From a virus, in the IMG/VR virus record IMGVR_UViG_3300029906_000004, positions 18,176-82,175 of that record: 64,000 nt of DNA; one strand, 5' to 3'. This document shows positions 45,620-45,736 of the stretch, piece by piece. Within the stretch, counting starts at the first letter, position 1. Each line of letters opens with the position of its first letter. The translations under genes were made by a program, and so were the position numbers. Under the pieces are notes generated by a model. It was not told the origin of the DNA. It did not search any database and was given only the letters and a program-made list of their open reading frames with translations.

Positions 45620-45736
45620 ACATGATTTTAACGTCTGCACTAATACTTATCTAAAATATAAATCCGTACGCTATTTATACTTTGATAAGATATAAGCCCC
45701 ACATGTTTGTTACTGATTCTCACAGTATGGACTATA
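45620..45736 (-). ncRNA. Hatchet self-cleaving ribozyme
   Basis: TACTG...CAGTAACAAACATGTGGGGCTTATATCT...AGTATTAGTGCAGACGTTAAAATCATGT is nearly identical to the hatchet core as I recall it. Predicted cleavage at about 45729/45728. Confidence 0.9.

Follow-up and report, generated by a model that had tools for sequence, protein, structure and literature searches.

The hatchet and its 5' hairpin

The sequence analysed here, referred to as the window, is a stretch of 64,000 nucleotides (nt) of the virus record IMGVR_UViG_3300029906_000004 and is part of a complete 103,003 bp virus genome with direct terminal repeats. On its minus strand, between two small genes, it carries a hatchet self-cleaving ribozyme, preceded by a hairpin (P0) and followed by a structured 3' domain that ends in a short tail complementary to the L2 segment of the ribozyme core. 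From comparison with other viral contigs, natural hatchets are probably the 5' module of a larger RNA closed by a helix between L2 nucleotides G66–G69 and the tail, extending beyond the textbook motif of ~80–130 nt.

When the whole window is searched with cmscan and Rfam 15, RF02678 (Hatchet) is matched at 45732–45620 on the minus strand, over model positions 1–133 of 133, with a score of 96.9 bits (E = 2.6e-19) against an Rfam gathering score of 51 bits. This is among the highest hatchet scores in the sample. The hatchet is present as a single copy in the 103,003 bp genome (E = 1.0e-22 in the genome-wide search), and a control search of 14 well-known genomes with the hatchet model gave 0 matches. 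All upper-case consensus positions are matched, comprising the L1 loop UGAGAAU, the CAA linker, UGUGGGGC, and GUGCAGACGUUAAAAUCA, with identity to the consensus at CAA (45709–45707), UGGGG (45701–45697), GCAG (45638–45635), and the run of A (45629–45626). At the level of sequence, the window copy is a member of the hatchet family, as the initial annotation of this DNA had proposed from a near-verbatim core at 45620–45736, coordinates within 4 nt of the Rfam match. The P4 hairpin described there as extended is ~22 nt shorter than the Rfam consensus P4 and is therefore not special.

Positions within the ribozyme were assigned by applying the register of the published crystal numbering (U1:A19, L1 U7–U13, CAA 20–22; PMC6561176) to the Rfam alignment. 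The elements of the ribozyme and its 5' hairpin are as follows.

45760–45731, minus strand: P0 hairpin, ending 2 nt from the +1 nucleotide
45760–45754 with 45737–45731, minus strand: P0 outer stem of about 8 bp, from the sequence
45750–45748 (UUC) with 45743–45741 (GAA), minus strand: P0 inner stem, beyond an internal loop
45747–45744, minus strand: GUGA tetraloop of P0
45729/45728, minus strand: predicted scissile bond between C45729 (-1) and A45728 (+1), from the register, with an uncertainty of ~1 nt
45728–45710, minus strand: P1 hairpin of 19 nt, with 5 Watson-Crick pairs, an A45728·A45710 mismatch, and the 7 nt loop UGAGAAU
45709–45707, minus strand: CAA linker, from the Rfam alignment
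45706–45702 (ACAUG) with 45624–45620 (CAUGU), minus strand: P2, from the Rfam alignment
45701–45697, minus strand: core UGGGG, from the Rfam alignment
45697–45639, minus strand: P3-L3-P4 arm with P4 loop AGCGUACGG, from the Rfam alignment and folding
45638–45625, minus strand: 3' strand of L2, GCAGACGUUAAAAU, from the Rfam alignment, in which G66-A67-C68-G69 correspond to 45635–45632

The predicted scissile bond agrees with the new 5' end previously placed at about 45728. A hatchet is recognized by a P1 of 3 or 6 bp that follows the cleavage site immediately on its 3' side, the loop being UGAGAAU in the 6 bp forms; in the window, five of the six P1 pairs are Watson-Crick, including A3-U17, which is part of a base triple in the hatchet structure (PMC6561176). 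Among the copies compared, P2 occurs as ACAUG/CAUGU, ACCUG/CAGGU, UCCUG/CAGGA, and GCAUG/CAUGC, which are compensatory changes, and P3 and P4 are paired in the Rfam alignment. In its P0, 6 bp type of P1, CAA, P2, L2 core, P3, long P4, cleavage site at the 5' end, and presence in a human-gut phage, the window copy is the same as RF02678.

P0 was found in 155 of 156 unique hatchet 5' contexts, 0–8 nt from the cut. It has been described as present in ~90% of hatchets, not needed for catalysis, and without sequence conservation (Li et al. 2015, PMC4604424). In the subtype to which the window belongs P0 is not sequence-free, since it has a set form of outer stem, internal loop, 3 bp inner stem, and GUGA tetraloop, with a conserved UAG at its 3' side, and the inner stem covaries, occurring in six variants that are all fully complementary (36/36 within this subtype). 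As P0 is dispensable in vitro, it is probably under selection for its effect on the cleaved product or on folding in vivo.

Without a hatchet of its own, a P0-like hairpin whose loop is GUGAAUAUAG or GUGAAGAUAG also recurs ~170 nt downstream of hatchets of other subtypes (for example L004:1745–1830, and in L012 and L113), with a conserved UUGCACUCAUAAGG..CCUUCACGUGGCGAGUGUGU element after it. The sole Rfam match for it is a weak one to Clostridiales-3 (32.8 bits, E = 5.7e-5, L020:1750–1986). This may be another unclassified structured RNA that shares the 5' module.

Covariation between L2 and a downstream tail

The published hatchet consensus stops at the 3' strand of P2, whereas the window copy and 183 of the 205 units with a long L2 continue into a 3' domain. 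BLAST matches in other crAss genera cover the hatchet and 55 nt more on its 3' side at 85–94% identity despite different flanking genes, and the first hairpin of the 3' domain is better conserved than either flanking gene. An exact scan with an 18-mer of the L2 3' strand retrieved more than 114 viral contigs, many of them of 95–102 kb, and the 3' flanks of the hatchets so retrieved sort into subtypes. In every subtype the 3' domain closes with a hairpin and then (N)CGUC(C/G/U)U, complementary to the GACG of L2, with the tail motif N-G-N-C lying 55–324 nt downstream of the core. In the window, the 3' domain is made up of the following.

45619–45579, minus strand: bulged hairpin, the first 3' module (ACUC..GAGU, AUA..UAU, AGGA..UCCU), with apical loop UUGGCCG
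45563–45560 (GCCA) with loop 45601–45598 (UGGC), minus strand: candidate pseudoknot of 4 bp
45513–45500, minus strand: hairpin GGUU-CUUACU-AACC, by inspection and unscored; the subtype form is AGUU-GAUACU-AACU
45487–45474, minus strand: terminal hairpin CCUG-AGUAAG-CAGG, by sequence comparison
45472–45469, minus strand: tail CGUC, after the terminal hairpin, complementary to L2 GACG (45635–45632)

The initial annotation, which gave no strand, contained neither P0 nor this 3' domain of ~160 nt tied to the core, nor the A·A mismatch at the first pair of P1.

The bulged hairpin is supported by 27 non-redundant relatives, in which 92.6% of cells are paired against 26–41% in slid controls. Its covariation score was equalled by 0 of 500 shuffles, with pair types UA/AU/GC, GC/AU, and AU/UA at three of its pairs. 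A pseudoknot is possible within this domain, with moderate support. Its strands are UGAC/GUCA in most relatives and UGGC/GCCA in the window, the pair between alignment positions 43 and 82 being AU in 22 and GC in 5. The stems of the terminal hairpin are CCAG/CUGG, CCUG/CAGG, or CCAA/UUGG among relatives. There is no Rfam family for the 3' domain, even at E ≤ 5.

The first loci were chosen by L2-containing 17–18-mers carrying GACG, and because of this selection the extra Rfam hatchets in the same loci were added, as was a viral scan for single substitutions at positions 67, 68, and 69, from which hits were kept only where the hatchet core was complete. Tails were then called by a rule blind to L2, requiring N-G-N-C-N-U-Y-A at 30–400 nt past P2 and separated by no more than 3 nt from a preceding hairpin with 4 bp or more. 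An earlier rule, accepting any NGUC after a hairpin, had been dropped as too loose, because AGUC occurs as background in 30% of canonical units. A single MAFFT alignment from L2 to the tail placed the AGUC tails in another register, because the intervening 3' domains are not homologous, and register-free tallies were used instead. The tally, in which both test positions were left free, comprises 232 unique non-redundant units, given here by the nucleotides at L2 positions 67 and 69.

A and G: 133 units, tail C..U in 119
A and U: 61 units, tail A..U in 57 and C..U in 0
A and A: 3 units, tail U..U in 2; the third (L163) has a hairpin and UGUC by eye
G and G: 8 units, tail C..C in 5
Short L2 without ACG (first of tandem pairs): tail in 0 of 27 units

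These tallies, in which a complementary tail is present in 183 of the 205 long-L2 units, show covariation between L2 and the tail. The pair types are G:C, U:A, and A:U at one position and A:U and G:C at the other. The 183 units fall into 17 unrelated 3'-domain clusters (10 AG, 4 AU, 3 GG, and 2 AA), and if the 19 lineage states were re-paired at random, a match in every one would have a probability of 8.6e-9. Examples of the minority states are all Rfam-positive hatchets, with scores of 55–101 bits. Compared with the canonical members of the window's own cluster, L132 (AA) has essentially a double change, GACG to GACA and CGUC to UGUC. Six loci with C68 variants came from the scan, none with a complete hatchet core. 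The pairs proposed for the window are C45472:G45632, G45471:C45633, and U45470:A45634, to which C45469:G45635 may be added. No description of an L2-tail helix was found in the full-text literature, a search that did not cover the original 2015 discovery paper.

Two other signals involving the tail were considered and rejected. The tail sequence GGUCGUCCUUA has 9 matches in the window against 8.2 expected, so that it is not a dispersed signal, and a second GUGAGAAUAG at 41313–41322 lies inside coding sequence without a hairpin. Pairing of the window tail UCCUUA with UAAGGA of the 3' hairpin is not kept in relatives with tails GUCGUCGUCA.

The segment of L2 that would pair with the tail is already known from structural work in another capacity. 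In the crystal, A67–U70 (ACGU) forms a symmetric intermolecular helix of 4 bp that drives dimer formation (Zheng et al. 2019, PMC6561176), and the same authors describe the segment as nonconserved and palindromic, with activity unchanged when ACGU(67–70) is replaced by UUUU. In the comparison made here, the segment they found dispensable is the one that covaries with the tail. The L2 variants ACUU, GCGU, and ACAU are non-palindromic and each is complementary to its own tail, which suggests that selection acts on intramolecular pairing and not on self-dimerization. G66 is essential, the G66A mutant being nearly inactive while inosine (G66I) is tolerated, and it contacts G63 through its Hoogsteen face (PMC6561176), so that its Watson-Crick face would be available to the tail. 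What purpose the palindrome serves in vivo has been called "an unanswered question" (2020 review, PMC7357161). If the L2-tail helix exists as proposed, the crystal homodimer would be an artefact of tail removal, in which the orphaned ACGU pairs with itself, and the question raised in the dimerization review would be answered.

The hatchet class itself, P0, the metagenomic gut origin, and the concentration of the class in Crassvirales, to which it is largely confined (2026 preprint 10.64898/2026.03.07.710320), are already known. What appears to be new is the 3' accessory domain, the covarying L2-tail helix, and the structured P0 with its GNRA tetraloop.

Phage genome, flanking genes, and neighbouring RNAs

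The genome is that of a crAss-like gut phage with TAG-recoded late genes, its closest database relatives being Crassvirales of the family Suoliviridae. The late and structural blocks on the plus strand (47–20707 and 57248–62851) form long open reading frames (ORFs) only when TAG is read as sense, and such readthrough ORFs include those of 325, 631, 4532, 1392, 1028 (terminase), and 836 amino acids (aa; portal). No suppressor tRNA was called within the window. The minus-strand arm, which spans ~49 kb to 20 kb, has its reading frames open in the standard code and encodes a DNA polymerase, a DnaB-like helicase, a primase, and an exonuclease. The hatchet is co-directional with this arm, ~3.5 kb into it, among small genes and RNA genes, and its position in the standard-code replication arm therefore fits an early or middle arm. 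The two flanking genes, which the initial annotation had correctly seen as small, are these.

45802–46305, minus strand: upstream gene for a predicted membrane-anchored protein of 167 aa, from the ORF list, with its stop 42 nt before P0
45264–45437, minus strand: downstream gene for a zinc-ribbon protein of 57 aa, with a weak DUF1660 / phrog_2670 match

The 167 aa protein has no Pfam or PHROG match, and belongs to one membrane-anchored family that is upstream of the hatchet in 65 loci of the subtype. The downstream gene in the subtype is of one of two small-protein families, that of the 57 aa protein being present in 27 loci. In the window, the next gene starts ~190 nt past the hatchet, with its ATG 32 nt past the tail. 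The distance from the end of the tail to the next ATG has a median of 34–40 nt in the window's subtype and is 25–49 nt in several unrelated lineages, while that from the upstream stop codon to the end of P1 has a median of 74 nt in the subtype. The arrangement in the window's subtype is syntenic, rather than mobile. A homing-endonuclease cassette was considered and rejected: an HNH endonuclease is upstream of the hatchet in cr55_1, as an insertion peculiar to that lineage, and an unrelated membrane protein is found at this place in cr6_1, in the window, and in the 65 loci.

Several other structured RNAs are found near the hatchet. In the direction of transcription the order is tRNA-Leu(UAA), a RAGATH-6 match, the hatchet, and a permuted transfer-messenger RNA (tmRNA) called by ARAGORN.

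47776–47692, minus strand: tRNA-Leu(UAA)
47326–47194, minus strand: RAGATH-6 match to the full model (88.1 bits, E = 1.3e-12; curated cut-off 170)
44339–43956, minus strand: permuted tmRNA ("tmRNA*") from ARAGORN, with tag GNTTYVTDYSRVA*

The RAGATH-6 match, ~1.5 kb upstream of the hatchet, probably represents a divergent but genuine member of its family, RAGATH-6 being present in the same neighbourhood of relatives with 125–178 bits. There is also a weak RAGATH-7 match at 48015–48190 (20.5 bits, E = 0.16), and no twister ribozyme is matched by Rfam at E ≤ 1 in 46000–49500 on the minus strand. No Rfam tmRNA match was found in the window at E ≤ 5; the cut-off of RF04321 (permuted tmRNA) is 47 bits. 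The tmRNA interval, ~1.3 kb downstream of the hatchet, is probably real because its alignment with the RF04321 matches of related phages (41–49 bits) has conserved blocks, the tag frame among them. A two-piece phage-encoded tmRNA seems, from this alignment, to be conserved in this crAss lineage. The hatchet had been placed by the initial annotation in the early region and proposed to cut a long early transcript upstream of a tmRNA locus, which is plausible. The tmRNA locus is probably there, and the early region is compatible with the co-directional replication arm; the placement as a whole is reasonable, with timing and co-transcription presumed.

Around the hatchets of relatives, which carry 2–4 each, there are RAGATH-6, RAGATH-7, RAGATH-9, and RAGATH-14 RNAs, twister-P1 (as in L075), tRNAs, and the permuted tmRNA. 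The window thus resembles the RAGATH neighbourhoods (RAGATH-6, -7, -7-assoc, -9, and -14) in being an intergenic RNA array associated with a ribozyme and including a RAGATH-6 match, although the 3' domain of the hatchet matches none of the RAGATH families even at E ≤ 5. A RAGATH-14 RNA of 171 bits adjoins the hatchets in another crAss-like contig (L161:4860–5096, minus strand), so that the composition of the RNA arrays varies among lineages.

Possible roles of the extended RNA

To our knowledge, the hatchet, a class reportedly first described by Weinberg et al. in 2015, is among the few self-cleaving ribozymes without a known biological role, and all of its biochemistry and structures come from minimal constructs cut from metagenomic sequence. 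The context of a complete crAss-like genome suggests for it a concrete role that can be tested, in which early polycistronic transcripts would be punctuated and given stable new ends. On balance, and from comparative sequence data, the reading given preference here is that 45760–45469 on the minus strand is one folded RNA of ~290 nt, with the hatchet as its 5' module, that acts as transcript punctuation.

In this role, the unit would be transcribed within the long standard-code early or replication arm of the TAG-recoded phage, and the ribozyme would cut its own transcript between C45729 and A45728 by internal transesterification. The upstream fragment, the mRNA of the 167 aa protein, would then end in P0, two nucleotides, and a 2',3'-cyclic phosphate, a P0-capped 3' end that may be shaped against exonucleases. 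The downstream fragment would begin with a 5'-OH buried in the ribozyme fold and would run through the bulged hairpin, with its possible pseudoknot, and the two small hairpins to the tail CGUC at 45472–45469. Pairing of the tail back to G66–G69 of L2 would close the ribozyme and the 3' domain into a compact 5' leader that ends 32 nt short of the next gene's start codon, so that exonucleases and end-dependent decay would be countered at both new ends. Membership of the family, the form of P0, the 3' hairpin, and the covariation of L2 with the tail are shown by the sequences, whereas in vivo cleavage, protection by P0 and the leader, and any help of the L2-tail clamp in folding at physiological Mg2+, or another role for it, are inferred.

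Several points weigh against this interpretation. In the crystal, the first P1 pair, U1-A19, stacks on the catalytic C20-G30 pair (PMC6561176), whereas in the window copy A(+1)·A19 is a mismatch that breaks the pair adjoining the cleavage site, and it could slow or abolish cleavage. The combination C|A across the cut is found in 1 of 156 contexts, that of the window. The L2-tail helix is short, at 3–4 bp with two pairs invariant, sampling is biased to the canonical L2 because the loci were retrieved with L2-containing 17–18-mers, and 13 of 133 canonical units are without a tail under the rule. Folding stability gives no signal against shuffles for the 182 nt spacer (z = -0.12), and the 364 nt gap likewise folds no better than its shuffles (z = -0.99). 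The window sequence alone therefore gives no thermodynamic indication of the 3' structure, which is revealed only by comparison. Co-transcription with the upstream gene is an assumption. Additional structured RNAs, and not a start codon, come after the tail in other subtypes, and a leader of the next gene is therefore not general.

This last point has a bearing on the next most plausible reading, which is nonetheless rather unlikely, that the product of ~270 nt (45728–45469) is itself a stable functional non-coding RNA, protein-binding or trans-acting like the RAGATH RNAs nearby, with the downstream gene incidental. The ribozyme would here only set a defined 5' end. The region holds a series of structured RNAs, including tRNA-Leu, the RAGATH-6 match, and the tmRNA-like gene as well as the hatchet, the arrays of relatives hold RAGATH-6, -7, and -9, twister, and 2–4 hatchets, and the tails of other subtypes precede another RNA rather than an ORF. 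The greater conservation of the first 3' hairpin than of the flanking genes (85–94% across crAss genera) also speaks for such a product. On the other hand, the window has no 3'-end-forming element, such as a second ribozyme or a terminator, beyond the tail, the spacing between tail and ATG is held within narrow limits in this subtype, and the 3' domain has no Rfam family match.

The L2-tail pairing might instead be an off-switch, in which the transcribed tail captures L2, including G66, and stops the ribozyme; this would confine cleavage to a co-transcriptional interval or need a factor that frees the tail. Occupation of G66 could matter, given that G66A is nearly inactive (PMC6561176), and minimal tail-less hatchets cleave efficiently during in vitro transcription (PMC4604424), so that catalysis does not depend on the tail. 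The terminal hairpin of the GACU class carries a repeat of the tail in its 5' strand (AGUCCUA...UAGGAUAGUCCUC), which would allow alternative pairings, but this repeat is not seen in the window's subtype. The same four L2 nucleotides are also within a 4 bp helix in the crystal, in a fold taken as the active architecture (PMC6561176), and the activity of G66I and the use of the Hoogsteen face mean that Watson-Crick pairing may suit activity. A switch of this kind is considered unlikely.

That the window copy is a decaying or inactive hatchet, kept by selection on the surrounding RNA structure or the flanking genes, is quite improbable. The A·A mismatch beside the scissile phosphate is unique in the sample, relative cr6_1 having the canonical U1-A19 pair as in the crystal hatchet, and this genome has one hatchet against 2–4 in relatives. 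The catalytic core, L1, P2, P3/P4, P0, 3' domain, and tail are, however, all intact, the score of 96.9 bits is among the top, and an imperfect P1 is seen in 17 of the 156 contexts. No mutational data on the N1-N19 pair were found in PMC6561176. A chance resemblance, or a plus-strand feature such as a DNA-level element, is scarcely credible given E = 2.6e-19, 0 matches in the 14 control genomes, the compensatory changes in P2, P0, the 3' hairpin, and the L2-tail helix, and the agreement of strand with gene direction.

Under the preferred reading, of a hatchet closed by its tail and punctuating the transcript, one parallel is with extended hammerheads, where evolution has likewise kept a peripheral element with which minimal constructs can dispense in vitro. 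The hammerhead contact is between distal loops and permits fast cleavage at physiological Mg2+ (cited in PMC4604424), while that of the hatchet would be a short Watson-Crick helix from an internal loop of the core to a tail up to 324 nt away. By analogy, the L2-tail clamp may work like the hammerhead peripheral contact and, perhaps with the GNRA tetraloop of P0, allow efficient folding or activity of the ribozyme in cells. In human cells, gene expression was hardly changed by a minimal hatchet without P0 (PMC10761166), a result compatible with missing accessory elements, although it does not demonstrate their importance, and the poor showing of minimal hatchets in vivo could be explained in this way. 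The L2-tail helix thus bears on why a segment dispensable for catalysis is kept (PMC6561176), on what the crystal dimer means in vivo (PMC7357161), and on the near-null effect in human cells (PMC10761166).

A second parallel is with ribozymes like that of hepatitis delta virus (HDV), with which the hatchet has been compared (PMC6561176). In both, the ribozyme is wholly downstream of the cut, so that the upstream RNA has a clean 3' end and the ribozyme stays on the downstream RNA. The HDV-like "theta" ribozymes are reported to adjoin tRNAs in recoded gut phages, and the window hatchet is similarly in a phage with stop-codon recoding. The folds are unrelated, and the upstream element in the window is P0 after a protein gene, not a tRNA. 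As far as we know, no class other than hatchet and HDV leaves the upstream product free of ribozyme sequence, and extended hatchets would for this reason be better parts for RNA engineering if the clamp aids folding at low Mg2+.

Hatchets also occur as tandem pairs, ~80–110 nt apart, in other contigs (L004:1217–1573, L020:424–767, L058:3986–4359, L023:4507–4933, and L038:3213–3611). The first member of these pairs has a short L2 (for example GCAGAGAAAUCA), with neither the ACG segment nor a tail. Cutting by both members would free a fragment of ~250 nt whose ends, 5'-OH and 2',3'-cyclic phosphate, are ligatable.

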